This document shows, one piece after another, positions 1-62,659 of a stretch of DNA of 64,000 nt; the stretch's first letter is position 1; every line of letters starts with the position of its first letter. The position numbers were made by a program, and so were the translations under genes. The notes below the pieces were generated by a model that saw nothing but the letters and a program-made list of their open reading frames with translations, did no database searches and was not told where the DNA came from. The DNA is from a virus (taxonomy: Duplodnaviria > Caudoviricetes), in the IMG/VR virus record IMGVR_UViG_3300025678_000005; one strand, given 5' to 3'.

Positions 1-360
1 CAATGAACCCTGTGCTTCAGCATGCTTTAATGCCGTCTGTCAATCATATTTTGCATTACGTAGTTTATTTACCTCACTTATAAGTTGTAATGATGCAGAT
101 ACATTTGATGATTTGGTAAATGGATTCATAGATGATGTTTGTATTTTTTGTAATTTAGATACAAAATCATCTATGTCATTTACAAGTCCACCATTCTTTA
201 TTAAATATTCAAAAGTTGTCTTGTCTAATATTCCTACTCCAGATGTATCTTCTGCTTTCTTTGTTACAGGAGCAGATTTTTTAACTGGAGTAGAGAAATC
301 AGAAGTAAATGGAGTATATGTTAAAAATCCACCACCACTTTGCAATTTTTTTATTTTCAT
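1..360 (-). CDS. Cargo/ejection-type virion protein, N-terminal part (runs off the left edge)
   Basis: The listed stop at 40 is TGA and the frame stays open (YDWQTALKHAEAQGS...). Starts MKIKKLQSGGG; lies at the end of the late module. Confidence 0.6.
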
Positions 361-361
361 A

Positions 362-3300
362 CTATTTAAATATTTTAATCAAAGATTTTACAAGTAATTC
401 ATTATCATGTTGAATTGTTTTATAAAATATTTCCATATCCTTCATTTTATAACGAGTTTCAGATCTGATTTTTTCAACTTCTATTCTTCCAGCATCTGTT
501 AAACTACCACCTTTAGCATTTTTTAAAACTCTTGACAGAGGCATACCAACAAACAAAGCAGTATTAACAGTATTTCATTTTTTTTCTAATATTTTTTTCT
601 TAGTTTCTAATTCTTCTTTTCTTTTTAATCAGTTTTTATACTCATCAGTTTTTTGAAATTCTGTGTCTCAATCAGTATGATCAATCGCATATTGATCCAT
701 GTTTGGTGTGGTTCTATCAATATAATCCTGTTTTAGTTTATTAATTAAATTTTCATGTTCTTGATACTCATTCATTACATTTTGATATTCTTCATCATTT
801 AGCAAATTAAATAATTTTTCGGTATTTTCATTTTCTTGTGCTTCTTTATTTACTTTAGAAGTCCATCTTGATGTATATTTAGCTAGATTAGAAATATTTT
901 GTGCATTTACAAGATCCTCATTTGCATTAACAAGATTAATTTGTTTTCTTGCATTTGCAATATTAGCAGTATTATTTGCTGCAATAGCTGCATTTCTTTC
1001 TGCTGTTTTTGCATTAAGTGCTGTTTGTGCATTATTAAGATTAGAAATATATTCTTGATTTGCAGAATTATATTTATCACGTATTGCATTTGCATTTTTC
1101 AATCCTTCTAATTTGATAGATGCTGCCTTATCTATATCTGCAACAGAAGAGGCCACTCTATTTATAGTACCCATTACATTATTTGCCTGTTTTTCTCCAA
1201 GTACTAAATAAGGAGAAGAAATTTTGTAATTTTGATAAGGAATAGATGGTAAAGTATAAACACCTTCAACTACAGCATTTCTTTGATATTGTCCAGAGGC
1301 TTTATTTGCCTTATTTAATGTTCAAGCAGAAAATATATTAGCAAGTAACTCGTTAGCATTGTCTAAAACACTTTGTCTTATATATGATGTTTCTTTCTCA
1401 TTTGGATTTACGGTCTTTCCGTCTTGCATTTTACGTATTTTTCCACCAGATTTGAGTTGAATATTCATTTTCCTTAAGACTTTTTCTACTAATTCATGAT
1501 CACGATAATCTTGATAAACATTTCCTGTAGTAGATTTTACCTCTTCTGGATTAAAGTTTATTTTTACATCACTCTTTTTAAATACATTTTTTACTCCTTT
1601 TTTAACTTCTGGAATTTCTATAGCCTGTCTCTTAAAAGCACGTGTAGCTTTTCAATCTGCAGCCCAATTTTTTCCAACTGCAATTCCTCTCATTAAATTT
1701 GTTCAATCTTCTGGATTTGTATATGAAATATCGCCTCTCGTCTTTGTGTCTTTAATTATATTAAATGCACTATTTGCTGCTGGTGTCACAGTTGCTATTC
1801 TGGCTCCAGTAATCACAATTTTTGGTGTTTTATTTATTAATTCACCAGCACTTTTAACAGCAGCACCCAACGTATTGCTCCCTAAAACTGGAGTTGGAGA
1901 TGATCATATTCTTTTTACGACATCTATACCTTTTTCCAAATCTTTCAACTCTTCTTCGGCAAGATTTAATTTTTTAGCTTCATCCAACAATTTTGCTGCA
2001 TCAGATGCTTCAAGTCCATTCTTAGTTACAAAATTAGTAAGTGTTTGTACTCCTTTTGCATCAGAGCCCTTTAGAGGAATTCTACTGGCTTTCTGTATCA
2101 TTTTTCCAGCTTCAACTCCTTTTTGTGCCATCTTTCCAGCTTTAATTAAATTTTTTACCCCACCAAGACCTATTGTAGATAATCCAATGAAAGCATAATC
2201 CATTAAAGCATCCTTACCAACAACATCACTTCATTGAAAACCATCTTTAGATATTCTATTTGCTATATTAGCTGCTGCTGCAACTGATGCTCCAACAGTT
2301 CCAACAGGGCCTGGCGCAAATGCAGCTAAATCTCCAGCCATTGATAATCCAGTAAGTGCTTTTTGTTTATTAGACATCCCCTTTCATGTATTGTCAATAT
2401 TAATAGCAGTTCCTGTATTTAATTTTTCATTTTGTTTTTTATTTGCTTGTTCTGCTAATATTTTTCTTCTATATTCAGCAAAATTATTACCATTTTGCAT
2501 TTTTATGATTCCTCCAGTTTTTTTAATTTCTGTTGATGGTAAAATTCTATGATAGTCTGCAACAAGCTTATATATTTTCTTTTTTCTCTGTGTATTATTT
2601 TTTACTGTAGGATCATTAGCCAAAGCCCACTTTAATTGGGCAGCTGCCTTTGTCAGTTCTTTACCATAAGTTGGTGTTTTACCACCATACAATGCTTCTG
2701 TTAATTTTATTATATTTTTATCTGTATTTTCAGTTTTTAATTCTTCACTATAATTATTAACATTTATATTTGGAAAGTCTTTATCATAATCAATTACTTC
2801 TGTTACTTGATTACCCAAATCAAGCATGTTAAATGGTAAAGTATATTCTTGATTGGTACCTTTTAAATAGTATTTATTATTATTTCCTTTATAAACAATA
2901 ATTGTTTGATTATTTGGTGTTTTTATAACCAGATTTTTTGTAAAATCTCGTCTACCTAATAAATTTTTTGCATACTGTCCTTCTTGATTTTCTCCAGAAT
3001 ATCCTGTAACATTATATCCTGGAACATCTGTAATAATCTCTCTTCCAACATTATTAGTATATATATCTTGAGATCACACATCTGGATTTTCTTGATGTCT
3101 AGATGGTGTAAAAAATTCAAATCTTCCATTTTTATTAGTCCAAGAATATCCAAATCCAGGATGAAACTGATTTTCAATACCAAAATTAAAAAATCCAGTT
3201 GGCGTTGTTACTAAATAAGTTTTATTTGTTGGATTGTATCATGTTATAGCATTATGCTTTTTAGCTATTTCTGGTCACCAAGTAGCCTCTGGAGATGGAA

Positions 3301-4165
3301 GTCAATTATTATCTGCTACTTGTGTAAAACCATAATTATTTAAAAAGCTTTTTACTTTGTCAGAAATATTATATTTTGAATATATAGATTGGGCCCTACC
3401 ATATCTTTCTTTTTCTTTTAATAAATCACTTTTTTCTTTCTCTTTTTCAGCAATTTTATCTCACACTTCTTGAGTAAGTAAAAACTGATTTGGTGTTCAA
3501 TTAATTTCTTTTGATGTTGCTACAAAGCTATCTCAATCCTTTTTTCCTATTGCTTCAGCTACAGCATCTAGTTTAGATTTATAATCTGGATTAATAGATA
3601 GATTATTTTTTTCTGCATTTTTATTATATCTTTGTAATAACTCATTTGCATTTTCAAATACAAAATTTTTTATATCTTCATTATTTTTAAATTTTGAATA
3701 CGTGTTTTCCAAATCATATTCAGTTGCTAATTTTGTATTATTAATAAAGTCTTCAAGAGAAGCAATATTTATATTACTATAAGTAGGCTTTGTTTCTGTT
3801 TGCACTGGAGTTTTTTTAACATTTTTTAATGCGTTTCCATATATTGACATTGCTATAGACATAGCATCTTGATCATCCTTAATTTTATAATTTTTTGTTC
3901 ACCAGTTGGTCTTTATTTCATCCTGACTTCCAGCAAAATCTTGTTTAAATTTTTCAGGAACAGTATATGTGTTTGTAACTGGATCAAATTCAACAGTTCC
4001 ATTTTCTGGATTTGAAAATGTATCCCTTATTTTAGCCAAAAGATTTCTTACTTTTATTTCATCTTTGCTTTTTAATTTATACTTTGGCAATTCTTTTAGA
4101 AGCTGTTCTTCAAGAGCCTCTTTACTCACTATTCCACCAGGTGCTAATTTTTTTACTTGAGACAT
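362..4165 (-). CDS. Large (~1267 aa) cargo/ejection-type virion protein, code 4
   Basis: Track ORFs 3899-4165, 3533-3862, 2384-2827, 1904-2203, 668-1174 and 362-556 share one frame and are broken at TGA; final stop is TAG. Contains a Gly/Ala-rich hydrophobic segment and a coiled-coil region. Confidence 0.7.
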
Positions 4166-4191
4166 TGTATTTACTTTAATTAGTTAATAAT

Positions 4192-4217
4192 AAAAAGGAA
4201 GCCATTTTCAGGCTTCC
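4192..4217 (-). terminator. Rho-independent terminator-like hairpin
   Basis: GGAAGCC/GGCTTCC stem with a 7-nt loop, followed by T5 on the minus strand. Confidence 0.65.
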
Positions 4218-4229
4218 CTTTAAGATAGC

Positions 4230-4478: not shown

Positions 4479-4510
4479 TTTTTAATTGATTGATTAATTT
4501 ATTAATTATA

Positions 4511-5068
4511 TTATTTATCTACATACTCTGGTTCAGTATTTTCTTGTATTTCTAGAAAATCAAATAATTTTTCTCCCAGTGTTTTATAATCATTATCTTT
4601 TTTTGTTAAGTATGCTTTTTTTGCATATTTAATTAATTTTTTAGTGTGTTCTCTACTGAACAACCTCTCATTACCCTCTAATTCCATTTGCACCTTACCA
4701 TCTGCATCAAGCAATAACATTTTATCATTTGGATATAATTCCATTTCATCTCCAATAGAAATTCCAGAATTTCTATTAACTTCCAATACATAAGAAATAT
4801 TATCTACTTCTATTATTTTTTCTGAATTTGGTTCTCCATTGGCCACATATACAACTTTCATATCCTCATCTAAAAATATAATATCTAAAGGAATAATAGT
4901 GTCTTTCATTCAAAAACTAACAGTTTGTGGGGGGTCAAACACAAATAACATTCCTTCATTTTCTGGAAGATTTGTTATGTTTTGCAATCCAGTTTCTTTT
5001 TCTTCATCAGTTATGGCTATTTTTACATCATATGTTTTATTTGCAATAGCTATTTTTATTCTATTCAT
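4511..5068 (-). CDS. DUF192-family protein, code 4
   Basis: GL..LPENEGMLFVF...SF[W=TGA, 4910-4912]MKDTIIPLDIIFLD...YVLEVN matches the DUF192 FWMKNT motif. True start is ATG at 5068. Confidence 0.85.
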
Positions 5069-22147: not shown

Positions 22148-23575
22148 CTAGTTTTCTTCCAGTATAAAGGATTTATACGGTGCAAACACTGCAATACCAG
22201 AATAACCTGCCACAATCAAAGAAGATCCAGCAACAGGAGAGCTAACTACTCCAGATGTAATTCCATCAATACCACCAATTCCAGGGTATTTTGAAGTAAT
22301 AAATTCAGCTCCTTTAAGGGTAAATGCTGCAATTGCGGGCTGTCCAGTTTCCATATCGGGAGACATGTCTAAACAGATTCCATATCCCTTATTAGGATAT
22401 TCTTTTGAAAGAGCTCTGTCTACCATAAACGTAAGAGTGTTTCCAGCAACTTCATAAGAAACAAATGTTCCACCTACCTTGATAGGATTTTCTATCTTAA
22501 CCATGCTTTGAGTTGCTTTTGAATACAGTAAAGTTGGAGTAGAACCCCAATTGCTTAACCATGCTCCCAAAGCAAAATTAACTTGTCCCCAAAGCCTATC
22601 ATTTACAACAAAGGTATAATTATTTCCAGTAGAATTTGCTGCTCTTTGATTCATACTGTCTAATACAGTATTCATGACCATCGTATTCATTTTTACATAA
22701 TTAAACTTTGATGCAAATCTTTCTATTTGAGGAATCAATCCATCTCCTGCAATTAATGGACGTCCATCTTCAGTAAGAACAGTGGACTTTCCATTTTTAT
22801 CCATAGTAGATTTTCCCTCAAGAAGGTGATTGTTTTTAACAATTTGGAAATTAGTTAAAAGATCTTTTTCCATGCTGTTCAGCTTAAAGATCTTTTCTTT
22901 TAATTCACCATTTTCACTTCCTTCTGCAATTTTGATAAATCTATCTTCCATCTGTGCGTATCTAGACGAAAATGAAATATCATTTCTATGTTCAGTTATC
23001 CACTGACGATGTTTTTCCACATTGCTTTGATACTTGGAATAGCCCTTTTCGTGATATTCGGGCATAATATTGCTTAAGAATCTGGTAGTTTTTCCTTTTT
23101 TACATGCATCTGTATTTAATACAGCTGTATAATCAGGATCAATTAATTGTACTACATATTCTCAAAAATCATCTGCTTTTCTTACAGGCTCTGCCTTTAC
23201 AATGCACTGTTGTCTGGATTCATCAATTTTAAAGGTATCATATTTTTCATAATACCTGCGATTGAAATATACCACAAAATCGCTACCTGGGCCAGACCAA
23301 GCAACATCAGCAGCAAATTCAATTCTTTCAATAAAATCAATATCTATTTCTCATTCAATGGCCATTGAATTGATCGGCTGAAATTTATTTACAGTTTTGT
23401 TGTTGTAATAAATATTCAAAAGGGCCTCAGTCAGAAAAGTTGTAGTGTTATGAGGAGACATTCTCGCCATAACTCCCATCATTTGTGGACGCAACCCTAA
23501 AAATTTGTAAAAGTCCTCATAAGTCCTACTATGGGCCAATTCGGGTTTTACGTTTACATAACTTGCTATTACCAT
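22148..23575 (-). CDS. Major capsid protein (475 aa, code 4)
   Basis: RTYEDFYKFLG, MPEYHEKGYSKYQSNVEKHR, GDGLIPQIERFASK, SSPVAGS. In-frame TGA at 23351-23353 and 23162-23164. Confidence 0.9.
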
Positions 23576-37929: not shown

Positions 37930-40900
37930 TTAAATTTCCTCCATAATTAAATTTCCATTTTCTATACTAATATTATATGATTTATCAGTATTTTTATCTT
38001 TTAATGTAATATGATCTTTTAAATAATTTATTTGTTCTTGTTGTTCTTTAATTGCATTTGTAAGTAGTGCTACCATTTGGCTATATTTAACTCCATCAAC
38101 AATATCATCTTGATATAGAACAAGTTTATCATCAATCTCTTCAACTTCTTCTGCTATAAAACCAAAATCTTCTTTGTTATCACTTTTTCATTTAAATTGT
38201 CTTGGTTTTAATTTTAATACAGCATTCAATCCTAAATTAAAATCAATTATATCATATTTATATTTTTGACTTGAAGAGTATCTAACTAATTTATATACAC
38301 CAGAATCTGATGTAGCATATACAGCTGTTCCAGTACCTGTTGTTGGGAGTCCTAATTTAAGGTCTCCTGGTATTTTAACTGTATTAGTAAAATTACTGTT
38401 TACATTTGTAATTGTTAGACCAGAACTACAATCATTAGTAAATGAAAATCCACAAATTTCATTTAATGTTTCATCAACATAAGAAGAACTATAATATACA
38501 TATATAGTACTAGCATCATAAATTGAAACAACTCTAATCAAAATATTAAAATTTGAACTTTCAATATCCTGCCTCATATTTGATCATTGTAAATATGTAG
38601 TATATAGTGTTGAGCTTGCAGGAAAAGAAATTGGGCCACTGTTAGATAATTCGTTAATGTGACCATTTTTATCAATATATCCAAAAAAAATTGTCGCAAC
38701 ATTTAATATGCTAGATGATATATTAATAGTAATGCGTAAGTTTGTAATGCTTGATCCAGATCATAAATTAAATGAAAATCCATTAAAGACTAATCAATCT
38801 GATTCTTGATTTTCACTCAATGTAACAGAATTATTATCTCAATTTGGCCCATTATCATAATCAATATTTGAATAACTAATAGTACCTGTATTATTTGTTG
38901 ATCTTGTTTTTGTTCCAATTGATGTTAATTTTACAATTGCATTATTTGTTGAAGGATTGTGTACATGGAATTTAGTATTACTATTAATATTGGCAATCCC
39001 TATTCCAACATTACCACCACCAGTTGTCATATAAACATTAGAATCAGAAAAATGATTTAAATAAATATTTCCAGCAGTATCACCAGATGCTTTATAAGAA
39101 TCAATATGAAAATTTCCACCATCAGATCCAGAAGTATTGGTTCTTGCCAACACACCAATTCCTCCAGTTGTATTTGTTATTATAATATCTCCATTAACAT
39201 TGGACGTTCCATCAAATAATTGTCCTCAAAGAGTTCGAGTGGTCTGTAACTTTGTTGCAGACGCTACATTATCAGTTACTAGTGCCAACTTTACTCAATC
39301 AGTTGCTGTACCACTAACTCTTTTCCTTGTAAAAATATCATTTGAATAAAAATCAAAAGCCAATGCTCTATTATAATATGTATCTCCATTACCGTGATTT
39401 AATTTAATAACTGACCATCAATTATTAGTTGGTACATTTCCATATGAATCTACTGTATTTGTTTGTAAAAATTGTACTTTATCGGTTATATTATTAGCAT
39501 TATTATAATTAATCAAATTAGCAGTTACAGATCCATTTGTATATCCACCTAAACTATAAGCATTTATATTATTTAAATTAGAATATAATATTCTTCATCC
39601 TGGAGAATAATCTACTCCATTATTTTGATATATTAATGTACTGTTTATTATACCATTAGATACTCCTGTAGTTGATGGTGTGTGTATAACTATAGTATAA
39701 TAACTGGAACTTCCAAATGTTTCTACTGTACATCCAGCTAAATGTAAATTTCCAAATCCAGTATCTGTAATATAATTATTTGCAGCATAAGTTCATTTTC
39801 CTCTGGCAATTCAATGTGGTTGATTGAATGCTCCTAACGAAGTTAACATTGATACAAAAGCAGCAGTAGTTATTCCAGTTTGAGATCCACCAAAAGAATA
39901 TGAATCAGAAAATGCTCTAGCAAATCCATTTGATTGTATTCCATCTAAATATTGAGAATTTAAATTAGTCACAAGAGCATTAGATGATAAAATAAATGGA
40001 GGATTGCTTCCATTAACAAACGTAGATACTATTTGTCCAGATGCTGATAATGTTCCTATACCAGCTAAATTTAATGTACCACTAGATCTATTTATATTAA
40101 CAGCAGTAGTTCCTATATACATAACTTGATTTATAGCGGCAATACCAGCAGCAGATAAACTGTTATTTACTCAATTAGTACCACTTCATTTTAATATATC
40201 ATTATCAGTAAGTGTTGAAATACTAACATTAGATAAAGAATTTAAAGAATGATTATGTGACGATAAAGCATAACTACTACTATCTAATGATCATGAATTA
40301 GTTGCTGTTTTTTTAAGAAATCCAACAGAACTATCTGATAGAGCAGCAATAGCATTTAAATCACCATCCAAAGGTTGATATACTCCAGCATGATCATGTG
40401 TTAAAGATGCTATTCCAGCCTCTGATAATGTATTATTCACTCATTTAGAGCCATCTCATTTGAGAATTTCACCAATAGTGTTAGAATCAATTGTAACATT
40501 GGATAATGAATCCAATATATGATTATGTGTTGAAGTAGCAAAACTTGATGAATGATAACCATCCAATAGATCGGCATTTAAATTAGCAACTAATGTTGTA
40601 GAAGTAACTGATAATGGTGCAGTACCTGTTGTTGCTGTAGATATTAATTGGAACCCTTGAATAGCTCCACTTGCTGTAATATCAGTTACAGAAGTTAATG
40701 CTCCTGATACATTAGCGGTACCATTAAAACTTTGTCCCCAAATAGTTCTTGCTGTTTGAAGTTTGGTTGCACTACTCGCATTCCCACTTAAAGCTCCATA
40801 AAATGTATTTGCATATATATTTATTAAACTAGTTCCTCCGCCATAAAAACCATATTCTGTAAAGTTTCCTCCGTCGTTATAATTTACATATAATCTACCA

Positions 40901-41909
40901 CTAGCTAAACCTCCTCCAATATTAACTTCATTACCAGCATGTAATGAAACTGCGGCTGCACTTGTTGCTGTAGCGGCATTACCAATTAATGCCCCTGCAA
41001 ACGTCGGAGCTGTTACTATACCTGTAAATGTAGGCGAAGCAATATTTGCTTTTAGGTCAATAGCTGCCTGAACGTCTTCAGGTGCTGGTGTCCAGTCTGT
41101 GGCTTTGTTGCCTTTCTCTATTTTTATTGTGTTATTTCCACCCAATCGCCTGCATTAACAACTGTAGGGCGTGTCATAAACCAACTGCCTGTGCTCAAAT
41201 CGAAATTCGCTGAACCTGTTATTTTAGCATATGCTTTGACAAATGTTTCTTCATTCAAAGGTTGTTCATAAGTGAAACTTCCAAAGCTGGTATTTGCAAC
41301 GCCAGTATTCATTATATAGTTATATGCTAGAGGGACTGTCCCCCTAACTAGCAAGGAAATTGTATACTGTTCTCCTGCTCGCAACAACATTTTTCTTGCA
41401 TTCGAACCTTGTTGAATACTTATATACCCAGAGCCATTGTCGGTTGTCTTGACGGTTGTAAGACCTTTATATTCGCCAAAAGATATAGTTCCAAATATAG
41501 TTCCATCTGAGTACGGAACCCACTCTTTAGAATTTGTTAACCGTGCTAAATTCCTGCCACCTATCTGAATATTATTTACCGCCGTTGAGATGTCTGAAGG
41601 GGTTGCTATTCCTGCTTCTACTAATGTATTATTAATCCATTTACTACCGTCTCATTTAAGTATTTCACCAGCAGAATTTGAAGTAATAGTAACATTAGAA
41701 TGACTGTCTAATGTATGTGCAGAAGGTGCAAAAGTTGTTGGTTTACCTCCTATATAATTTCATAAGGTGTCAAAGAAGTTACCATGAGTCCAAATTCTTT
41801 TAGTATCTTGAATAAATACTATAGATTTACTATCAATTAATCCATTGGCTAAATCTGTATCGAATCTAGCTTGTGTAGCATAATTAAGAAATTTTGTTTT
41901 ATAAGCCAT
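37930..41909 (-). CDS. Long tail fibre/receptor-binding protein with C-terminal Peptidase_S74 chaperone; 1-nt frameshift near 41127
   Basis: Starts MAYKTKFLNY; ends SSQKYKYDI...LKPRQFK[W]...FGFIAEEV...KYSQMVALLTNAIKEQQ. The span is 3980 nt, one short of a multiple of 3. Confidence 0.75.
40140..41720 (-). repeat. Three diverged ~40-aa repeats within the tail fibre (about 40140-40258, 40405-40530, 41602-41720)
   Basis: Consensus HxLxSxSNVxI...ILKWxGxxWxNNxLxxAGIA. Confidence 0.8.
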
Positions 41910-48668: not shown

Positions 48669-48905
48669 TTATTTTTTTGTTATTTTAGCGGATAGTCCTA
48701 CAGCTGCACAAAACGTAATAATATATCCACATATTTTAAATACTATTTCAGAAACTCCATATTCTTGTAAATTAAAGGCTTTGTCAGCCATCAATACTGC
48801 AACGGCAGATGAACCAATTATGGTTGCCAATTTTAACACTTTTTGTCAAAACTCTGGACTCTCTGCTTTTCATCTTTCTTTAAGTTCTTGAATTCAATTA
48901 ATCAT
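48669..48905 (-). CDS. Small two-TM membrane protein, putative holin (absent from the ORF track)
   Basis: MIN[W]IQELKER[W]KAESPEF[W]QKVLKLATIIGSSAVAVLMA...ICGYIITFCAAVGLSAKITKK. Confidence 0.6.
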
Positions 48906-51093
48906 TTTTTATTTCGTCATTTCTTTTGTTTGTATCAATAAGCTGAACTCCCTCCAACTCTACTCTCTTTTGTTGTAACTTAACTAATTCTTCCTTATAA
49001 TTACTATCTGTTTTGGCTTTATATCACTGTATTTGTTTTTCAAATTCTAATTTTTCATTTTCAAGTCGTAGTTTCTCTTCATTTAAAGCCTCTATCTGTT
49101 TTTGAAGTTGCTCTGATTGCTTTGTTGAATCTTTTAAGGCACCATCTAGTTGTTGTAGTTGTTCTATAAGTTTTTCAACTTCATTTTTTTCATTCTGTTT
49201 TTTTACTAAAGATGATTTTACGGTTTCCTTCATCTGTGTCAGGCTACTAGATGTTATAATATCTACTAATATATCTGGATCTACCATATTATTTTTAGTT
49301 AGTTCTATTCCAAATTGTTTTATTAATTCTTGGTCTCTTATAATATCTGATGTATCTACAATACTTATGTCAAAATCAGTAAGTGTAAATTGTTCTGGCA
49401 ATGCAGTAAATACCTTATTTAATTTTTCTCCAAGAATGAGTGTTCCAGATAAACCATTCTTATATACTTTTTTTGCTACATTTAAAATATCAATAAGCAT
49501 TTCTGCTGTTAGAGTATTCATTATCTGATAATATTGTTTTGTAATATAGGATGATTGTCTAACACCAACTTGTACATTTGTAACAGCATCTCTTTGCTCA
49601 ATACCACCAAGTCTTTCTCGAAATACACCAGTTATTAGTGAACAAGCGTCTTCATTTCTCTGAATTGCAAGGTCTATGGCTTGTATAGCCTGTATTCTGA
49701 CTGTATCATCAAATCCACCAAATATTGTATTTGGCATGGAAGGCATACCTTCCTGTGTAGAATCGATCAATGCCATACCTGTTTTTTTATATGCTTTTCA
49801 TTTTAAAAGCCTTTCTTCTGGTGTATTTCCAAGAAAAGCGGGCAAATAACCAACATCAATTCAATCTCCAACAGTTCCAGATTCTGCTATAATATTGTCT
49901 TTGTAAAAATATAATATATCATTTCTGTCTTGTAAATCGGCAGTTTTAAGCATAATTGAAAACGGATCTCCATTCCTGTCAGAATAGAAAACACCATTAA
50001 TAGATAAACTTGTAGACTTTGGATCATCAATACTTCTTATTGCATCTTCATCTTTTCCATGTAAAATATAAATAGAACCTCCAATTCTAACTCCACTATA
50101 TCGATTTACAATATAACTTCCATCCTCTTTCTCCGTTTTTAACCATTCTACTTCATAACATGGAAAAGTTCTCATTTGCTTTGCAGTAGATGTTTGATAT
50201 GGAAGTAGTGGAGATACTTCAAATCCACCAAGAATTCCATCACTTTGTGTAGTATTATTTACAGAATTATCAAGTGTTCTGACATAAGTAAAGCTTCCAT
50301 TAGCCTCTAATCCTGATTTTGTTTCCAAACTCTCAAGATCATCTTTTGTTAAAAGATCTCCATATTTGGCAAGAATTTGGTCTTTTGTTAAATATTCTCT
50401 GATTACAGCTCTTGAAGAATTTTTTAAATAGATAGATTCTACATTTCTATCTACAAAAGTATTAAGAGGATTTAATACTTTTAAAACAATATTAGTTTTA
50501 GATGGAGATGGTTGAACACGGTAGTATGCCATTCCAGAAACTAATAGGTCTATTAATAATGTTTTTCTTTGGTTTAAAAAATCAATTTTTCTATTTTGTA
50601 ATACTCAATTAACAATATTTTGTCCAGCAATTTCATAATCAGAAATAAAATTATTTTCTATACTTTCTTTTAATTTTTCCAGTCTATTTTCTACTTCCTT
50701 GTCATAACCATCCGAACTTATATTATTATAAATTCTGTCTTTTAAATATTTACGTAATTCACTTGCTATTGCATTATTTATAGCTATTTGTTTTTCTTTA
50801 AATATGTTTGATAGTGTAGCTTCATCTTTACATGTAACTCTAGGCAACAATTCTGTTGATATATATTCTCCAACTAAAACATCTACATGTTTTCTAACCA
50901 TTGGTATAAATTCAACAGATGTTGGCGTTCCTATTCCATAATTAAATTCTAGATGTCTATACTGCTCTGGGTCTCTTTTACCATGGTAATAGTTGTAAGC
51001 TTTTAAAACCTGTACTTTATCATATACAAGTTCAGATATTGCCTTATTTATAATATCTATATACTCTTGTTCCTTTTTTGTTCTATTTTCCAT
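48898..51093 (-). CDS. Portal protein (731 aa, code 4)
   Basis: AYNYYHGKRD..Y..L..NYGIGTPTS, [W]KAYKKTG, ITGVFRERLGGIEQRDAVTNV; C-terminal coiled coil. Confidence 0.9.
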
Positions 51094-51096
51094 AGT

Positions 51097-51372
51097 TTAT
51101 TTCTTATTAGGTGTACGAATTGTTCTATAATATTCAAAACGAATATAATTACGTGTTGCCAATTCATTATATATATATTTTAAAAAATCTTCATCATTAG
51201 ATGCTTCACAAATTAAAACAGTCGGATACATATAACTTGGTATTCCCAATTTTAATGTATATATAGAATCTTCTTTAATTACTTCTAGAAGTCCATTAAA
51301 AATTGCTCCATATTGAGTCTTTATAAAGTCACGAATCCTGTTCTCCAGGTCTTTCCTGTAAATTTCGTTCAT
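51097..51372 (-). CDS. Small conserved protein between TerL and portal
   Basis: Intact ORF in a conserved position. Confidence 0.6.
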   Translation of the reverse strand: MNEIYRKDLENRIRDFIKTQYGAIFNGLLEVIKEDSIYTLKLGIPSYMYPTVLICEASNDEDFLKYIYNELATRNYIRFEYYRTIRTPNKK

Positions 51373-53386
51373 AATCGTTTGTTGGAATTATTCCATAATG
51401 TTTGTATCCTCTGAAATCTGTTCATCATCCCACATGATGAAATTCTTTATTTTTCTTTATTCTCTCTTTTGGTTTTAATACAGCCAATTCCTCATCTCCA
51501 AGTTCAGCCATTCCCATTGCTGCCACAATATCAAATTCTTTCTTTTTTGCATCAGAATATCTTAATAATTGATCAACCATGTCCCTAAAATGCATCGTAT
51601 GTGAGTAATCAAGAATAAAATCATATAACAATTCTCTATAATGTGTAATTGTTTTAACTGTTGCTGGAGCGCCATACATATTTGAATTTCCCTTTACTAC
51701 ATCCGTCATTGTAGACCTTGGTCTTTTCATTAATAAATGTATCAGTTTATTATCTCTAAAATAGGTTAATATGGCTGTTCTCGTAGATTCAAGTACTGCT
51801 TTGCAACCATAATATACTAATAATTTAGCAGCAGTATCATAAGCTTCTTTTAAATATTTTGGCCTATCATTATACATTGCTACATACATTGGATCTTTTA
51901 ATCCAAATATTCTTTTTTTGATTACAATACAAAATTTAGATCCACCAGAACCAGAAGCAGAATCTTCAAGTCCTATATCAATAGAGTCTATTCCACCAAC
52001 ATATAAATTATCATAATATTCTCCATCTTCTGTTTTAATTGGATGTTCTATGATAGAAATTTTTCCAAATTTAGCATCTTCAACTCACTCAACTCCAATT
52101 ATTTCGTCTTTTTCATTTCTTTTCCAAACCAAATAACCTACTGAAGGTTTTTTTGTATTTTTATGTACTTCAATATTTGTCATTTGGTTTGCCAGTTGTT
52201 CTTGGGGGAAAAAATTATCTCCTTCCAAACTAAAAGCCTCATCTAATGTAAAACAGTATTCTGCTTTATAAATCATTAAGTCCTTTGGCTTATGTTCAAG
52301 AACTTTTCTTTCTTTTTCATAATGAGCCTTTGCCAAATCTGGATCACACCACCCTCTATTATCAAGCAATTCAAAAACAATTTTAGTTGCTGGAATAAAG
52401 AATGCAGAAAATGTATAAGATCCATCTTTAGTATAATTATGTCTATATTTTAAAATATTATATGCTTCTGGGTCTGTTACAATATCTTTTAACCCAGCTA
52501 ATTGTGGCCCAGTATCTCCACCAGTTCCTCACACAATTCTAGTTCCTACTCTACTTCCTCCTAATACTTTAATTAATGCTTCTCCCTGAATATATTTACT
52601 TTTTAAATTTGGATCAGATCCAGCCTCTTCAAATAATAGCCTTTCTGTTCTATCACCCCTTATTTTTTCTGCAGAGTCTGCAATTACCCCCTCTATTTCT
52701 GACATATGTCCTTTTTCAGAACCATCCTTTGTTTTTTTGGATGCTCTTTTATACGTATTAGTGTCAATTGCCATTCTTAAATGCTTAAATCCTTTTTCAG
52801 TTTCTTCATTTAATCAGTTAAGCTGTGCCCATATTTTAGATAAAATTGGAGACAAATGTCTTTCTGATGGAGCGGTAACAAGAGTTCTATAATTAGGAGT
52901 AGTTGTATATGGTCTTACAGCCAACTCTGCACCTATTTCAGATAAACCAACACCTCTTGATTTTATAAGCCCAATATCATATCCCAACAATTCACACATT
53001 TCAACATAATGAAAATATTCATATTGAAATACTAAGAACATTGGAAATTCTATTTTTCTACCCCTGCTCTTTTCATTTCTAGACCCTTTTAGTCTATGAA
53101 AATTTAATCAAAAATAATTATCACCAGAAATCCTATATCCATTTGATTCATAACCTTCAACGCATCTCCTAATTCTTTCAGATCAAAAATCTCTATAAGA
53201 TTGTGTACCAAACACTGTATCACTATATTTACCAGTATTCATTTTATGTATAGCGTCCTCTCTAAATCAATCAGGATTAAAGTCCAATCCACTTGTTTTA
53301 TTAATTGGTATATATTTTGTTAACTCATAAGATAAATTAGTATCAAAATATTCTATAGGATCAGTTATTTTTACATCTCATTCCAT
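51296..53386 (-). CDS. terL: Terminase large subunit (696 aa, code 4)
   Basis: Walker A region IKSRGVGLSE, Walker B LLFEEAGS, motif III [W]GTGGD, nuclease YVGGIDSID and FDIVAAMGM. Confidence 0.9.
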
Positions 53387-55266: not shown

Positions 55267-55542
55267 TTATCATTTATTCATTGGACATTTAGCATCTGGC
55301 ACTCTACATTTTGAAGCAAGTATACAACCACAACCATGTATATATCCAGGTTCTTTAGAAGAAGAAATCTCTTCTGTTTCTGGATTTATATATAGTCTTG
55401 GATTACAAACCTCTCCAAAAATATTATCTATTTTGTGTAATTTACAACATCTACATATTTTAATTCTATTATTAAATAATTCTTCTTCTTTATTGAAAAC
55501 ATTATTTAAAGTTCCTTCTATTATTTGCTCAATATTAAACAT
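55267..55542 (-). CDS. Small Cys-rich Zn-binding protein
   Basis: RIKICRCC...GCGC...CPMNK[W]-TAA; a CPxxKW C-terminus is typical of this family. Confidence 0.7.
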
Positions 55543-55961
55543 ACTATTAAAGTTATTGCTGCGCTTCCTCCTGCTATAAATGGAATTGATCTTTTTTGTC
55601 TATTATATGATTTAATAACATTGGAATTAATTTCAAGCAATTTATTATATTCAATTTTTTGCTCATCTATTCACTTGTTATTCAACAATATAATTGAATC
55701 TTTCAAAACAATTTCGCTGTTTTTTACAGATAACAATGAATCTTGTATATTAGTATATTCTATACTTCATTCATATAATTCTTTATACTTTTCAAGATCA
55801 GTTACATATAATCTTAAACCAAGTAAATCTTCTTTAAAGAAATTATAAGTTATTACAGTGTCCGAATTATTTTCTCACACTGTTCATTTTGACGATTGAG
55901 TCCAGCCATTCCGCATGATTAACAGCAGAAGCATCATACACAAACTTAATTTTTTTATCAT
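55521..55961 (-). CDS. Secreted coiled-coil protein with C-terminal hydrophobic segment, spanin-partner-like (absent from the ORF track)
   Basis: Signal-like MIKKLSLCMMLLLLIMRNGWTQ; 4 in-frame TGA; ends IPFIAGGSAAITLIVCLILSK; overlaps the upstream gene. Confidence 0.55.
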
Positions 55962-56208
55962 ATTTTATATAAATAATTTGTTTTTCGTTTTTTAAAGAAT
56001 CTATTTTTTCAGTTAATATAGAATCTTTTACTTTTAATACAGTATTAATACTGTCTAATTTTGATATTTTTAATTCATATTCATTTATTATTTGTTTTCT
56101 ATCTTTTTTATATTTGTTTGAAAAACAAAAAATTATTGATATAAATATAATCAATATCAATATAATTTTAAAATACGATTTTATTTCTTGATGCTTTAAA
56201 TTTATCAT
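55867..56208 (-). CDS. i-spanin-like protein (N-terminal TM plus coiled coil)
   Basis: IILILIIFISIIFCF followed by a heptad-rich region. Confidence 0.55.
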   Translation of the reverse strand: MINLKHQEIKSYFKIILILIIFISIIFCFSNKYKKDRKQIINEYELKISKLDSINTVLKVKDSILTEKIDSLKNEKQIIYIKYDKKIKFVYDASAVNHAEWLDSIVKMNSVRK

Positions 56209-57058
56209 GTTCTAATTCTTTTTTATAGTATAATAACATTCTTTCCACATCATTTTTTAAATAATTACATGGATAGTAGTTAATATTATCTGCATGATCA
56301 TAATGCGCTATCGTCAAAGATTTAATAATTGCATCTGGATTATTTTTTTCTATTATCCATGCATATGTTGACAACTGTAAACTATATTGCCAATAATTTG
56401 AATCCATTAAATTATTCAATGGAAACTTCATCATTACATTTTTCTTTTCTTTTCTATCATAAAAAGATTCCATATCTATTTTTGAAGAAGACTTATAATC
56501 TACAACATGTATTTCATTATTATCAACAATAACTAGATCTGCTTGTCCAGCTAATCTAAAACTACTATCTTTTGTAATATGTGATAATAAAATTTCTGGA
56601 TATATGGCTTGTGTTCCTAATTGTATTGTGTTAGTTGTATTAGGTAAAAATTTACCTCCTAATTTTAAATAACTTAATTCCTTAATGTCACCAACCAAAT
56701 TACCAGATTCTAATTCTTTATGTAGTTTTGTTCCTCTAATACAAGATTCCCTTGATTTGTTATTCCACTCTTCTATTACTTGCTGCTTTGTTATTAAAAA
56801 TATGTCTTTATCAATAGACCACTCATCCAAAAGAGATTCTTTAAAAGTTTTTGTATCTAGAAGCCACATCTTGAATTCATGAAATCTTGGACTTATCTTT
56901 TCAAGAGCTTTATAGGATGCCCAAAAATCACTATCGAATGTTGTAAACTTATGTATTAAAGTAGTAACAGAAATACATTCTTGTAATGTATTTTTTGTTA
57001 AATATTTGTGTGAAGCATCTTCATAAATAACATCTCTATTTTCCTTGTCAATATTCAT
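56168..57058 (-). CDS. PD-(D/E)XK (RecB-like) nuclease
   Basis: HKY, SVTT, RGTKLH, E...LAGQADL...VVDYKS, YSLQLSTY. Confidence 0.85.
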   Translation of the reverse strand: MNIDKENRDVIYEDASHKYLTKNTLQECISVTTLIHKFTTFDSDFWASYKALEKISPRFHEFKMWLLDTKTFKESLLDEWSIDKDIFLITKQQVIEEWNNKSRESCIRGTKLHKELESGNLVGDIKELSYLKLGGKFLPNTTNTIQLGTQAIYPEILLSHITKDSSFRLAGQADLVIVDNNEIHVVDYKSSSKIDMESFYDRKEKKNVMMKFPLNNLMDSNYWQYSLQLSTYAWIIEKNNPDAIIKSLTIAHYDHADNINYYPCNYLKNDVERMLLYYKKELEHDKFKASRNKIVF

Positions 57059-57777: not shown

Positions 57778-57785
57778 CAAAGTTA
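57778..57785 (-). promoter_or_regulatory. Bacteroidota-type -7 element heading the lysis/packaging operon
   Basis: TAACTTTG 32 nt upstream of ATG 57745. Confidence 0.55.
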
Positions 57786-57935
57786 TTAACTTTTAAAATA
57801 AAAAAATTAATATCATATTAAATATTATAATTAATAGTGAAATAAATAAAAGAGCTAATATAATTTAATATTAATTAAAACAAATAATTAATAAAATATT
57901 ATATTACTCTTTTATAATAATAATTCTTTAATATA

Positions 57936-60194
57936 TTATAGATGCAATATTTCACAGGAATTGCCATTACAAGCCTGTGCAGAATAATGATTAATTTCTT
58001 TATATTCTGGTTTTGTTAAAATAGTATTAAATTTAACTGTTTTAAATTGTCTGTTAATAACTTCTCATTTGTGTAAAAGATTCAAATCCTTTAAACAATA
58101 TATAGTCTTTTGTAAATCTCCACCAAAATAATTATTTGCAAACTTTTTAACTCTGCTAATCCAATACTTTTTTAATATTATTTGTTCCTTTGTTCCAGTT
58201 ATTTGTAGTTTTCTATCTTTAACCAAATCACATGCAGCTCATAAATTTTCATTAAAGTAATGCAATCCATCAACTATTAAACCAGAAGCAAATAATACAC
58301 CACGACCATATCTATCCATTAGTTCTTGTTCTGCAAGTATAGATGTATATGGAGCTTGATTATAATCTTTATCTATAGAATCAGTAACAAATGATACTGC
58401 TGTAAAATATTCTCTATTATCTCATATATAATCTATCATTTCTGAAAGATTATCTATAATAACAGTATTAGAAGTATTATGATGTGTTCCTTTATAAGCG
58501 CCAAGTTCTTCATTTACACCAATATTTACTCAATTTTCCTGTACAAATTTTATTAACTCAAGATGTTTTATTCCTTTTAAATCTTGTTTATATAAACCAT
58601 CTGTATTGTTTTCTATTGGAATAAATATAGCATAATCAGAATTATTCTGTGAGTCTAAGGCATCTTCTAATAAAAAAGACATATTTTTATTTAACCATTT
58701 TGCTATTTCATTTGATTTATTTATTCGCATTATTCTAAAATATTTTTTTGCATGTTCTGGATGTATGCCAGAAGCAGTGCCAAGAATAACGGAAGAGTTG
58801 CCAGAAGGTTTTACACAAGTCAATCTGGCTGCTGGAGATACATTTATAAAATTACCAATGACTTTATTTGTTTCTTTAATTACTTTAACTCCGTGTTCTA
58901 ACCATTCCTCATTAAATAACTTTGTATTATTCATCCACCCTGTAATAGAAATACCCAGCAGTGAATCTTGTTGAACTATTTCTTTTGTTGTGTCACCCAA
59001 ATAATCAAAATTATTATAACCACACTGTACTGTTCCAAGTATAGCAGCAGCTTTACAGGCATCTATGAATTTTTCTTCAGTAGTACAATTCTCTGCATTT
59101 ATCTCAGTTAAATTGCAAAAAGAAACTCCAAGATCTTGAAGATGATCTTTTATAAATTCTTCTAATTCATTATAAGATAATTCATTTATCTTTTTATCAA
59201 ATCTTTTATAAGCTATTGGATGTTGTAAAATTTCAAAACAAGGATTGAACATATCAAATCAAGAATTTGCAAAAGCAAATCCAATATCGTTTTTTTCATT
59301 ATTTAAAGAAATAATTTTATCAAATTGTTCTTTACTTGTTTCATTTCTTAATAATAAGACAGAATTATTTGTTCTGCTTCTTTGTGGATTGTCTATCCAC
59401 CAATTTCCAGTCTTGGCATTAATCATCTCTTCATCATTAATATCAACAATCATACACATTGCTGACCTTCTAATACCACCACTTAATACTGCTTCAGATG
59501 CAAAACATAAAATGTCACAAACAAGTATTGGTCTAATAACACATCCTTCTGTCTTTATTCAATTGTCAAGTAATTTTTCTATATTATTAAGTGCTTTTCT
59601 AAGGCCTTCCGATCCAGGGGCTTTAAATCCACCAGATATATAAGATCCTTCTGGTCTTATTCTTGAATAATCAAATTTTATTTTTTTACCAGCATATTGT
59701 GGAAAAGGTTGATTTGTGCTAAAATAAGATGACATTAAAACACCAAGAGCATCTGCTCAACTTTCTATATTGTCTTCAATATAAAAAGTCTCTGTTCCAG
59801 TAGTTCTTTCTTGTAGTCTTGGTAAATTATTAACAAATGGAAGTAATAATCCTATTCCAACACCACAACCACACAAAGAAAGATAAAACACTTCTTGAAA
59901 TACTCTTGGCCTTGCAGCATATATTGTAGAACAATTATATAATCTTGCATTATGTTTTTCTATTTGTTCATTCCTATATTGCAAACTTCTTTGTGATGCT
60001 AAAACATTTTTTGATTTCATTTGCTTAAGAGCAAATTCTAAATATCTATTTAAATCTTCATTATTATAATGCTTGATATGTCCAGATATAATATCCTCAC
60101 AAGCCTCCTCTCATGTTTCATATCTATCATCTTTCCATTTCAGGTAATCTGAATACAGTTTTAAATCACTTAAAAATTTTTTTCCTTTTTCCAT
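57936..60194 (-). CDS. nrdJ: Ribonucleotide reductase, probably class II (B12-dependent, monomeric type); 752 aa, code 4
   Basis: YET[W]EEAC, SQRSLQY..YNC, FNPCFEI, FCNLTEIN, TCVKPSGN, C-terminal ACNGNSCEI. No beta subunit nearby. Confidence 0.8.
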
Positions 60195-60215
60195 ATAATA
60201 TAAATATAGTTTATT

Positions 60216-60250
60216 AAAAAAGCCCATTATTCCAATATAAAATAATGGGC
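60216..60250 (-). terminator. Terminator-like hairpin directly upstream of the RNR
   Basis: GCCCATTATT/AATAATGGGC 10-bp stem followed by T6 on the minus strand. Confidence 0.7.
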
Positions 60251-60322
60251 CTGTAATTGGTTAATGTGAGATGTTTATACTTTAAAATATTCTAATATTT
60301 TCTCTTGTCACATACCGCATAC

Positions 60323-60490
60323 TTATAATCTATGATAATTTTTTACCTTATCTCCTACTAAATCTGGCTCGTATTCAAGTAATGTCTGTCTTATAAATTT
60401 TTTTGATGGGTTGCCCAACATTAGTTGTATGCCAGCATACGTATATCCTTCTTTTCTCAGTTCTATAATTTTCTCTTGTAGTTCTGTCAT
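60323..60490 (-). CDS. Small HTH protein
   Basis: MTELQEKIIELRKEGYTYAGIQLMLGNPSK. ATG 60490 is preferred because the listed GTG start overlaps the tRNA. Confidence 0.7.
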   Translation of the reverse strand: MTELQEKIIELRKEGYTYAGIQLMLGNPSKKFIRQTLLEYEPDLVGDKVKNYHRL

Positions 60491-60508
60491 TTTATGTACT
60501 TTTAGCTG

Positions 60509-60581
60509 CACCCTCGCCCCGATTCGAACAGAGATCTGACAATTTTGAAGATTGTGGTTTTACCAATTAAACTACGAAGGT
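60509..60581 (-). tRNA. Opal-suppressor tRNA, anticodon TCA (predicted tRNA-Trp(UCA))
   Basis: Acceptor ACCTTCG/CGAGGGT plus discriminator G; D-arm GTTT-AATTGGTA-AAAC; anticodon arm ACAAT-CT[TCA]AA-ATTGT; T-arm CTCTG-TTCGAAT-CGGGG. Short variable loop; no encoded CCA. Confidence 0.93.
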
Positions 60582-60597
60582 ATTTATTTTTCATATA

Positions 60598-60605
60598 CAA
60601 AGTTA
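60598..60605 (-). promoter_or_regulatory. Bacteroidota-type -7 element for the tRNA
   Basis: TAACTTTG ending 16 nt before the tRNA 5' end. Confidence 0.6.
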
Positions 60606-60744
60606 TGTAAAATTATATGATATATATTAAAAAATTTATTGTTTATGAAAATATTACTTTGTTTTAATTGGTAGACATATTTCTATATAATTTTATTTGT
60701 TTTATATATTATTTTTTAATTATATTGCCTATAAAATAGAAATT

Positions 60745-60966
60745 TTAATTAATATCTTCAAATATTTGTTTTAAAAATTCAAATGTAAGAGCATTTAATT
60801 TTGTTGAAATATATTTATCTAAATCAAGTCCAGTAGAGTAAATTTCTATTGTCTCGTCATCAAATCTAATAGTTCAAAAATCTTTTTTAAATTCATCCAT
60901 TATACTGTTATAATTTCTAGAAAATACACTCTCATCTAATAGTTTAATTATTTCTTTTTTTGTCAT
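60745..60966 (-). CDS. Hypothetical protein (73 aa, one in-frame TGA)
   Basis: MTKKEIIKLLDES...KKDF[W]TIRFDDETIEIY...EDIN-TAA. Confidence 0.55.
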
Positions 60967-61089
60967 AATACATTAATTATATTGTTTTAAATATAATATT
61001 AAACATCTACACATCATCTTTACTATATGTATTTTTGTCATATAAAACTTATATTTTCTGTCATTTAGTCATTAAATCTATATTGGTAT

Positions 61090-61097
61090 TAGATTTG
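61090..61097 (+). promoter_or_regulatory. Possible -7 element for the Hsp20 gene
   Basis: TAGATTTG about 50 nt upstream of ATG 61147. Confidence 0.4.
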
Positions 61098-61146
61098 ATA
61101 TTTATATTTTAGATAATTTATTTATAAATCATTAAATCTTTATAAT

Positions 61147-61422
61147 ATGTTTACCGATATACTAAGTCAACTATTTAATAACTATCCAATTTCAACAGAT
61201 GATACTACAATCAGACTACTGGTTCCTGGATATGGAAAAGAAGATCTAATACTAGAACAAGAAAATAATACACTAACAATCAAAGATACAAATAAAGATA
61301 TTCTAAAGATAATAAGAATACCAAATGATATTGAATCTATTGAAGCTAAATGTGATAAAGGAATCCTAGAACTAAAACTAAATAAAAGTACAGAGAACAA
61401 GAAGGTGATTGCTATACAATAG
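61147..61422 (+). CDS. Minimal small heat-shock protein (Hsp20/alpha-crystallin)
   Basis: LVPGYGKEDL.L..ENNTLTIK...IP...IEAKCDKGILELKL.K...KKVIAI. Confidence 0.8.
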   Translation: MFTDILSQLFNNYPISTDDTTIRLLVPGYGKEDLILEQENNTLTIKDTNKDILKIIRIPNDIESIEAKCDKGILELKLNKSTENKKVIAIQ

Positions 61423-61696
61423 CAGTCACCTCTTCATTTATAGGTTTAAAAGCATTTTTAATTCTAATCATCTTTTCTATTTCTGGTATTAACAAAAATA
61501 ATATATCAGCAGCCTCAGTTACAGTTGGAGCAACTACTTCAAAATCTGCATTTTCTGGATTAATAATAGATGGAATACCCAATAATATTGTATTATCTAT
61601 ATTAGCAGTTATATGCATTTGCTTATTATAAGGTTCTAATAATTTATTTATTGTATTATAATTATCCAACATTCTATCCTCATCAAGTAGTATCAT
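61412..61696 (-). CDS. Hypothetical protein
   Basis: Intact ORF with plausible composition. Confidence 0.55.
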   Translation of the reverse strand: MILLDEDRMLDNYNTINKLLEPYNKQMHITANIDNTILLGIPSIINPENADFEVVAPTVTEAADILFLLIPEIEKMIRIKNAFKPINEEVTAIV

Positions 61697-62138
61697 AGTT
61701 TATAAAATTTAAATATTCAAAATTACCTGTGTTTCTAAAGATATTTACAATCTTTAATATTCTATATTAATCTGATTTTTAATTATTTCTACTTAAATTA
61801 TTATACATTATAATTTAATTGAAATGAAAGTACAAATATACATCTTTTCTATTAAAAAAATTAGAGTTATACACTTTAAATAAATACTTCAAATAATTAC
61901 TAATTACATCCAAGATTTTTATAAAATTGTGTTTTGTACAGTCATTTAGTTTGTGTATATTTATTTTTTATTATCATATTAAATATTTGTTGTTATATAG
62001 AAATTTTTTATAACCTACTATAAAAATCATTCATAAATAATATTTTATACAGTAAAATTAATATCAAAGTAATATATTTGTAACTTAAATATAATATTTT
62101 ATCTATACTTTTGTATATTATTTTAATAAAGCATTTTT

Positions 62139-62384
62139 ATGAAAAAACTATTCTTAATTTTATTTTCTTTTATTTTACCATCTTTCAATTTACCTGTTCC
62201 AAAATTTACAGAAAAACAAATTTTAGATGCAATAAGTAATTATAAACAATTTGCATTAAATTGTGTTCCAAAAAATTTAAAAACAGACACTATTGAATAT
62301 CAAAGAAATGATACAATATTTATTTTAAGATTAGACTACAACTATATTCCATGGGTTGTAGAAATAAAAAGGCCAAACAAATAA
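62139..62384 (+). CDS. Hypothetical exported protein
   Basis: MKKLFLILFSFIL signal-like start; TATATTTG at 62073-62080 upstream. Confidence 0.55.
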   Translation: MKKLFLILFSFILPSFNLPVPKFTEKQILDAISNYKQFALNCVPKNLKTDTIEYQRNDTIFILRLDYNYIPWVVEIKRPNK

Positions 62385-62398
62385 AGTTTGGCATTTTA
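62372..62398. terminator. Hairpin between convergent genes
   Basis: GCCAAAC-AAATAAA-GTTTGGC with A/T-rich flanks. Confidence 0.45.
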
Positions 62399-62659
62399 TT
62401 ATTTTACTGTATTATTTTTGTCTGCTAATGATGAACCTGTTGTATACCAAATCCTATTTTTTCAATCCATATATGGATAAACTGGACGGGGATCTACTGG
62501 ATTAACTATATCAATAGATGCTCTTACTGGTACAATTGTATATTCTTTATAATCAACATCCATTTTATTTAATTGTTCCATCAACTCATTTATTTTAACT
62601 TCATCTACTATTTCAATTGTTTTATTATTTGTATCGATTGTAAATTTCATAATATTCAT
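62399..62659 (-). CDS. Hypothetical protein (86 aa if TGA 62462 is read as Trp)
   Basis: MKFTIDTNNKTIEI...PYMD[W]KNRIWYTT... to TAA at 62399. Confidence 0.55.

Follow-up and report, generated by a model that had tools for sequence, protein, structure and literature searches.

Gene content of the window and the sense reading of TGA

The DNA analyzed here, a stretch of 64,000 nucleotides (the window) from the IMG/VR virus record IMGVR_UViG_3300025678_000005, corresponds to bases 19-64018 of a linear viral contig of 138,532 bp, with a GC content of 26.7% and an estimated completeness of 75% (CheckV). Most of the window is taken up by one arm of a large crAss-like phage with two genetic codes, the arm of the late genes. 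This arm occupies positions 1-60227 of the minus strand and contains structural, packaging, and lysis genes together with a ribonucleotide reductase (RNR). When TGA is read as a sense codon (code 4), it resolves into 45 genes with a median gap of 3.5 nt between neighbors; 34 of them contain TGA, and each of the 45 terminates with TAA or TAG. The recoded arm opens with the gene for an opal suppressor tRNA with the anticodon UCA (60509-60581, minus strand; detected by ARAGORN and by Rfam RF00005 at 55.2 bits), referred to below as tRNA(UCA) and the only tRNA gene of the contig.

The hallmark genes of the arm, all on the minus strand, are full-length under code 4, with PHROG profiles covering most of each protein: the large terminase TerL (696 aa; 51296-53386; phrog_6681, E 3e-64; 10 TGA and 4 TGG), the portal protein (731 aa; 48898-51093; phrog_6547, E 2e-45; 4 TGA), the major capsid protein (MCP; 475 aa; 22148-23575; phrog_11589; 2 TGA and 5 TGG), an N-acetylmuramoyl-L-alanine amidase endolysin (25129-25716; phrog_435, E 1e-31; 3 TGA), and a class II-like RNR (763 aa; 57936-60227; phrog_367, E 1e-70; PDB 1l1l, E 4e-5; 8 TGA and 7 TGG). 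The tail fibers are likewise matched by PHROG profiles under this code. A first-pass annotation, made from the letters of the window alone, had described these five essential genes as broken only at TGA, and all of them are indeed intact once TGA is read through. Its further statement that every reconstructed gene ends in TAA or TAG holds as well, but is true by construction.

In-frame TGA outnumbers TGG by 191 to 63 in the 45 genes of the window, and none of these genes contains an in-frame TAA or TAG. For the minus arm of the whole contig the counts are 247 TGA and 76 TGG in 28,061 codons. The TGA positions are distributed uniformly along genes (Kolmogorov–Smirnov test, p = 0.22), and the nucleotide at +4 after TGA shows a weak depletion of C (p = 0.016), a bias too slight to provide evidence for the selection of leaky contexts. 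Fiber and giant proteins favor TGA over TGG by about 5:1 to 7:1, and the small recoded open reading frames (ORFs) of the arm are mostly without assignable function; recoding of small non-structural genes, as stated in the first-pass annotation, is to that extent conjectural.

The effect of each stop codon on coding capacity was measured across the window with stop-to-stop ORFs of at least 100 aa, called with table 11 or with TGA, TAG, or TAA as sense. Reading TGA as sense raises ORF coverage from 70% to 95% at a nearly constant number of ORFs (105 with table 11 and 104 with TGA as sense), while the summed ORF length increases from 17,116 to 27,913 aa, and the longest ORF, 393 aa under table 11, grows to 2,649 aa. 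The gain in coding density from table 11 to table 4, proposed as a check in the first-pass annotation, is thus clearly seen. With TAG as sense, coverage is 72%, which is no gain over 70%. The TAA control also reaches 95%, but it does so by opening overlapping frames (253 ORFs and 40,994 aa in 64 kb); it is therefore not counted as support for TAA recoding, which we rejected.

Tryptophan as the residue at TGA

Which residue does TGA specify? Window proteins with an X at each TGA were queried against 59 related loci, and the codon under the X was read. The codons found there are TGA (509), TGG (326), TTT (81), TAT (28), and TTC (20); the Phe and Tyr codons TTT, TTC, TAT, and TAC account for 134 together, and a glycine codon, GGA, occurs a single time in roughly 1,060 aligned cells. 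Scoring 46 informative columns with BLOSUM62, at equal weight and with TGA cells ignored, gave a sum of 308 for Trp and 77 for Tyr, the next best, followed by Phe (46), with negative sums for Cys (−91), Gly (−102), and Ser (−108). Alignment of TGA columns to residues other than Trp, which would have counted against the tryptophan reading, is accordingly not the pattern in these loci. The window's own TGG columns produce the same residue ranking, and the same TGA columns recur across the 59 independent assemblies.

Because all 59 relatives are themselves recoded, we sought witnesses that use the standard code. In three unrelated gut phages whose amidases are about 50% identical to that of the window and free of in-frame stops, all three amidase TGA columns are TGG. 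All eight TGA columns of the RNR are TGG in relatives with a TGA-free RNR. The human-gut contig MT835470.1, whose TerL is 47% identical and whose TerL–portal block contains no in-frame stops, has 7 TGG and 6 Phe or Tyr codons at 14 columns in which the window has TGA. PDB homologs were too distant for judging the RNR and amidase columns; the amidase TGA columns lie opposite D, T, and C in PDB homologs of about 25% identity, an alignment superseded by that with the 50%-identical homologs. Trp content agrees with these columns: it is 1.15% in the minus arm with TGA as Trp and 0.27% from TGG alone, and 0.98% in the plus-strand arm described below.

Motifs and internal repeats point to the same residue. 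The first-pass annotation had placed TGA at Trp positions conserved within protein families, and the motifs FwMK (4910-4912), ETwEE (60111-60113), and CPMNKw (55270-55272), in which w denotes a residue encoded by TGA, are all found in place. The first is the single TGA of a DUF192-like protein (4511-5068, minus strand), within the family motif F/M-W-M-K/R, and in PDB 3m7a and 3pjy the same column holds the W of F/M-W-M; the second belongs to the RNR, with its TGG witnesses. Exchanges of TGG and TGA between paralogous repeats had also been proposed, with mixed outcome. The clearest lies between a fiber-related protein of 261 aa (41124-41909, minus strand) and a tail-fiber protein in a 1071-aa frame (37930-41145, minus strand), which itself has internal repeats that swap the two codons: GSKWIN (41637-41639) and GSKwVN (40441-40443) are homologous by BLAST, and the TGG of the smaller protein stands opposite TGA in two copies within the larger one. 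For RTLwGQ (39226-39228) and RTIWGQ (40738-40740), both segments are present and share 16 of 22 residues by eye, but a self-BLAST did not return the pair. The third proposed pair, wTHG and WTHG, was not recovered by BLAST and amounts to a short motif only. Taken as far as sequence can take it, the meaning of TGA in the minus arm is established as Trp.

The suppressor tRNA is consistent with this assignment. It is 73 nt long, with a 7-bp acceptor stem, a 5-nt variable loop, an A1-U72 pair, and the discriminator base G73; the CCA end is not encoded. A1-U72 and G73 are identity elements by which bacterial tryptophanyl-tRNA synthetase (TrpRS) recognizes tRNA-Trp. An attempt to isotype it from its identity to each of the 27 tRNAs encoded by G001, a complete relative of 178 kb, was uninformative (best Thr, Met, and Leu, with about 42-49 identical bases), so that the Trp identity of the tRNA rests on A1-U72 and G73 together with the codon columns. 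The gene lies about 280 nt upstream of the RNR on the same strand and so heads the recoded arm. Among the relatives, a tRNA(UCA) was detected in 17, in all 17 on the TerL strand and upstream of TerL, and it sits just upstream of the RNR in every relative in which both genes were found. Release factor (PF00472) and TrpRS (PF00579) domains were not found in the contig.

Four distinct relatives carry a two-hairpin form of tRNA(UCA), 93-100 nt long, with an extra hairpin of 6-8 bp in the variable region (L006:3281-3376, identical to L008; L015:1555-1654, identical to L018; L042:990-1082; and L059:1331-1425). The loops of the extra hairpin read GUCCAAA, CUCCAAA, or CUUCCAACC and contain UCCAA, as does the anticodon loop of tRNA-Trp, which again points to TrpRS. 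TGA still aligns to Trp columns in these loci. The extra hairpin is missing from the window tRNA and from 11 other relatives, the clade thus mixing plain and two-hairpin suppressors.

These tRNA structures bear on the proposal that TGA encodes another residue, such as Gly (as in code 25), Cys, Ser, or selenocysteine, or that the interrupted frames are pseudogenes or assembly errors. ARAGORN does label the tRNA "SeC" owing to its UCA anticodon, and the long extra arm in some relatives could be taken in the same sense, but the 5-nt variable loop and 7-bp acceptor stem of the window tRNA are unlike those of tRNA-Sec, and 191 TGA in 34 genes are not the sparse sites expected of selenocysteine. Code 25, used by Gracilibacteria/Absconditabacteria and their phages, also makes TGA a sense codon, but for Gly, whereas Trp and other aromatic residues align here; membership in that code was rejected on the lone GGA and the negative Gly score, and Cys and Ser fare no better. 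Decay or misassembly is contradicted by 247 in-frame TGA alongside no in-frame TAA or TAG, and by the recurrence of the same columns in independent assemblies. From the alignments, we judge Gly, Cys, Ser, and selenocysteine to be excluded, and we give the proposal as a whole next to no credence.

Contrast between the arms and recoding of the RNR

The plus-strand arm begins with an ORF at 63581-64000 and runs on to about genome position 112,100; its 82 genes (about 63.6 to 112.1 kb of the contig) lie mostly beyond the window. They include PolA, two helicases, a primase, an AAA_24 ATPase, nucleases, a ligase, a deoxynucleoside monophosphate (dNMP) kinase, a radical-SAM protein, and ThyX, and the PolA, helicase, primase, ligase, and ThyX genes are free of TGA. 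In 13,011 codons this arm has 12 in-frame TGA and 128 TGG, where 115 TGA would be expected at the rate of the minus arm, and the contrast in TGA:TGG between the two arms of the contig is highly significant (Fisher's exact test, p = 4e-45). Eleven of the 12 TGA precede the last gene of the arm; seven of these fall in the last quarter of their ORF and are most simply real stops, and the other four lie near ORF starts or where two genes may be fused in one frame. With only TGG for Trp and TGA apparently kept as a stop, the plus arm should be translatable by an unmodified standard-code host. G001, the complete relative, is likewise laid out in two such arms, and its recoded arm is headed by tRNA(UCA).

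The contrast also speaks to the possibility that the host itself uses code 4, with TGA as Trp as in Mycoplasmatota, and that the phage merely follows it. A GC content of 27% and heavy use of TGA do resemble code-4 organisms. In such a host, however, the preference of the plus arm for TGG would be hard to understand, with most of its few in-frame TGA at ORF ends, and a tRNA(UCA) of the phage's own would be unnecessary; in addition, the closest named TerL sequences come from crAss-like phages whose hosts, Bacteroides, Flavobacterium, and Cellulophaga, are Bacteroidota with the standard code. We therefore consider a code-4 host very improbable. The likeness to Mycoplasmatota lies in the reassignment itself, the UCA anticodon on a tRNA-Trp-type body, and an A+T-rich genome; there the whole cell is recoded and release factor 2 (RF2) has been lost, whereas in this phage recoding is confined to one arm and the host presumably has RF2.

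The twelfth TGA of the plus arm provides the one convincing exception. It lies in the last gene, which encodes a Phage_lysozyme2 protein (L064:7559-8158; genome 111559-112158, plus strand), inside the domain at a GIAQ-x-N motif (GIAQ-TGA-N); phi29 gp13 has QW nearby, and one relative carries TGA at the same column. The presence of TGA in a lysozyme gene on the plus strand indicates that recoding follows late or lysis function and not the strand.

Between the two arms, the extent of recoding is narrower than first described. An ORF of 55 aa between the tRNA and the RNR (60323-60490, minus strand) has neither TGA nor TGG and is readable under both codes. Two further minus-strand ORFs have one TGA each and no informative homolog: one of 73 aa (60745-60966), with TGA at codon 31 and no homolog among the related loci, and one of 86 aa (62399-62659), with TGA at codon 66 and a weak match to phrog_31330 over residues 4-62 only, which could alternatively be a 65-aa protein that stops at the TGA. 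The recoded block is consequently demonstrated only for 1-60227. The first-pass annotation had extended it over 1-62659; its claim stands for the former interval, and recoding is not shown for 60228-62659. The boundary region between the arms also encodes an HTH_36/DnaD_N-like protein of 240 aa (62695-63417, minus strand; no TGA, one TGG).

Recoding also reaches the RNR, as had been noticed from the sequence. In the window this gene has 8 TGA and 7 TGG scattered along its length, compared with 4:131 in relatives (Fisher's exact test, p = 5e-7), and it lacks TGA altogether in 10 of 12 relative loci, so that a recoded RNR sets this phage apart from its relatives. A PD-(D/E)XK exonuclease (56168-57058, minus strand) keeps to the rule seen in the relatives, with 10:147 among them and 0:6 in the window copy, and TerL is recoded in 59 of 59 related loci. 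In this lineage, recoding has thus moved into a gene of nucleotide metabolism. The recoding of replication genes is already known to vary, with TGA in PolB of a Zeta phage and in the helicase and RNA polymerase of Lera (PMC7886860; 10.1101/2021.08.26.457843; PMC12386605), and the RNR is accordingly a case of local variation that introduces no new principle. One may speculate that the lineage captures recoding in the course of spreading from late genes into an earlier-acting RNR. The suppressor would then have to be active well before virion assembly; we hold this suggestion to be rather doubtful. If true, it would speak against a strict "late-gene timer," and the lineage would provide a natural series in which to follow the expansion of a code change across a genome.

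It is conceivable, too, that TGA means Trp but has no role in timing: the suppressor would be present early, TGG would drift to TGA under A+T pressure (27% GC), and the plus arm would be free of TGA because it is translated in the first minutes. The RNR, expected to act before the late genes and yet half recoded, with the tRNA some 280 nt upstream on its own strand, fits such a scheme, as do the gene-by-gene variation in TGA:TGG, which follows no clear gradient (MCP 2:5, exonuclease 0:6, TerL 10:4), and the slight bias of the +4 context. Drift does not readily explain why the genes next to the tRNA, RNR and exonuclease, are nearly free of TGA in the relatives while TerL is recoded in every one, a pattern that looks like selection by expression class, nor why TGA occurs in the lysozyme gene that closes the plus arm, where recoding again follows function. 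On balance, we find recoding without a role in timing improbable.

Some RNR and TerL genes of the relatives are interrupted in another way. The RNR match at L057:1141-5334 falls into three pieces separated by inserts of about 0.9 kb, and TerL matches span 2.8-3.0 kb, not 2.1 kb, at L049:7694-10472, L050:10001-12779, and L057:10001-13003. Introns or inteins, which have been described in Zeta crAss-like phages, are the probable cause.

Affiliation, proposed mechanism, and meaning

TerL identifies the phage as crAss-like. Over 86-91% of its length it shares 28-30% identity with cr55_1, cr10_1, cr1_1, and other named crAss-like phages, and crAss-like phages of Bacteroides, Flavobacterium, and Cellulophaga predominate among its matches; the portal protein and MCP correspond to PHROG families. 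The nearest GenBank record, again by TerL, is the unannotated standard-code contig MT835470.1, and 59 IMG/VR contigs are closer still, at 55-65% identity. Reassignment of a stop codon in Crassvirales, which the first-pass annotation had described as known, is well documented. The two-arm layout with TGA recoding has been published for crAss-like phages including the Zeta group (Yutin et al. 2021, PMC7886860), the Zeta-group phages Lera (PV725988) and ct1yV3 are TGA-to-Trp recoded (PMC12386605), and Borges et al. (2021, 10.1101/2021.08.26.457843) described the TGA-recoded clades Agate and Jade and proposed a gate on late genes and lysis.

The present phage shares with the Zeta group a large genome with two opposed arms, in-frame TGA in the genes for TerL, portal, structural proteins, and lysis, a tRNA-Sup(UCA), a largely standard-code replication arm, and a class II RNR. 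It differs in having a single tRNA in this contig, which is 75% complete, as against about 25, and in its lower GC content (27%). We assign it to the crAss-like phages, and a Zeta-type grouping would rest on these shared features, not on phylogeny. Agate and Jade are different phage lineages but likewise combine code 4 in genes for structure and lysis with a suppressor tRNA, standard-code replication genes, and a near relative that uses the standard code; Jade phages possess a TrpRS-RF1-tRNA "code change module," of which only the tRNA was found in this contig.

The relative G001 (loci L068-L076) resembles the published Lera and ct1yV3 in genome size, tRNA set, and GC content, a likeness drawn from their descriptions: it has a GC content of 32.6% and 27 tRNAs, including UCA and CUA suppressors, located at 19.8-33.6 kb, 161242-161337, and 172209-172306. 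It thus carries an amber suppressor (CUA) despite its TGA-recoded genome, in addition to an 84-nt tRNA-Trp(CCA) with an enlarged variable region. As for the contig itself, its ends (genome 1-60 and 138473-138532) share a 27-nt segment with one mismatch, and the final 15 nt match, in reverse complement, a segment close to the start, which may reflect a terminal repeat or an assembly fold-back.

We propose the following model. The phage, a dual-code member of the crAss-like group, would infect a standard-code bacterium, probably one of the Bacteroidota, as suggested by the TGA-free plus arm and by the hosts of phages with similar TerL. The plus arm would be translated by the standard code. On the minus strand, the virion, packaging, and lysis genes and the class II-type RNR use TGA, about three times as frequent as TGG, as a tryptophan codon. 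Host TrpRS presumably charges the phage's tRNA(UCA), and the charged tRNA would compete with host RF2 at UGA. Full-length virion and lysis proteins would then be made only after the tRNA has accumulated, delaying the translation of late genes along the lines of the model of Borges et al. We consider this combination of a dual code, a self-encoded suppressor, and a delay of late genes highly probable. Its parts differ in standing. Comparative sequence data demonstrate a sense TGA that corresponds to Trp in the minus arm, a tRNA that is encoded and conserved in position, and a difference between the arms; the temporal gate is a model, and insertion of Trp at UGA is a prediction for this phage. 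Published metaproteomics has provided validation for code 15 only and does not mention code 4.

Several observations weigh against the proposed model. Eleven of the 45 genes of the minus arm in the window contain no TGA. The RNR, normally needed before the late genes, carries 8 TGA, which implies early availability of the suppressor or late production of the RNR. As the contig is about 75% complete, the portion not covered could include a gene for TrpRS or a release factor. Two TGA columns of a 146-aa spanin-like gene (55521-55961, minus strand; 4 TGA and 1 TGG, the densest recoding among the small genes) are Ile or Val in relatives; these residues are not Trp-like, yet they are compatible with a variable coiled-coil position. 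The protein has a signal or lipobox-like segment at its N-terminus, followed by a coiled coil and, at the C-terminus, a hydrophobic tail, and is possibly a unimolecular spanin. Finally, a TAACTTTG box (TAnnTTTG, Bacteroidota −7-like) lies 24 nt upstream of tRNA(UCA) (window 60582-60620, minus strand), but 13 relatives lack it at this position, the tRNA there coming immediately after an ORF, and TAnnTTTG is not enriched in intergenic DNA (19 of 290 matches, compared with 7% intergenic sequence). Since the box is neither conserved nor enriched between genes, we do not claim a host-type promoter.

What is the relevance of these findings? The phenomenon has already been published for this phage group, and knowledge of its mechanism is unchanged. 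For annotation the consequences are direct: pipelines based on table 11 mis-annotate this contig and its 59 relatives, making 30% of the window seem non-coding and shattering the large virion proteins, and applying code 4 to the minus arm and code 11 to the plus arm yields a complete gene set. With this phage the dual-code crAss-like phages gain a clean, very A+T-rich member, in a clade that has a standard-code outgroup in MT835470.1. Within this clade the recoding state of the RNR differs among close relatives, which makes it useful for studying how the reassignment of a stop codon spreads.

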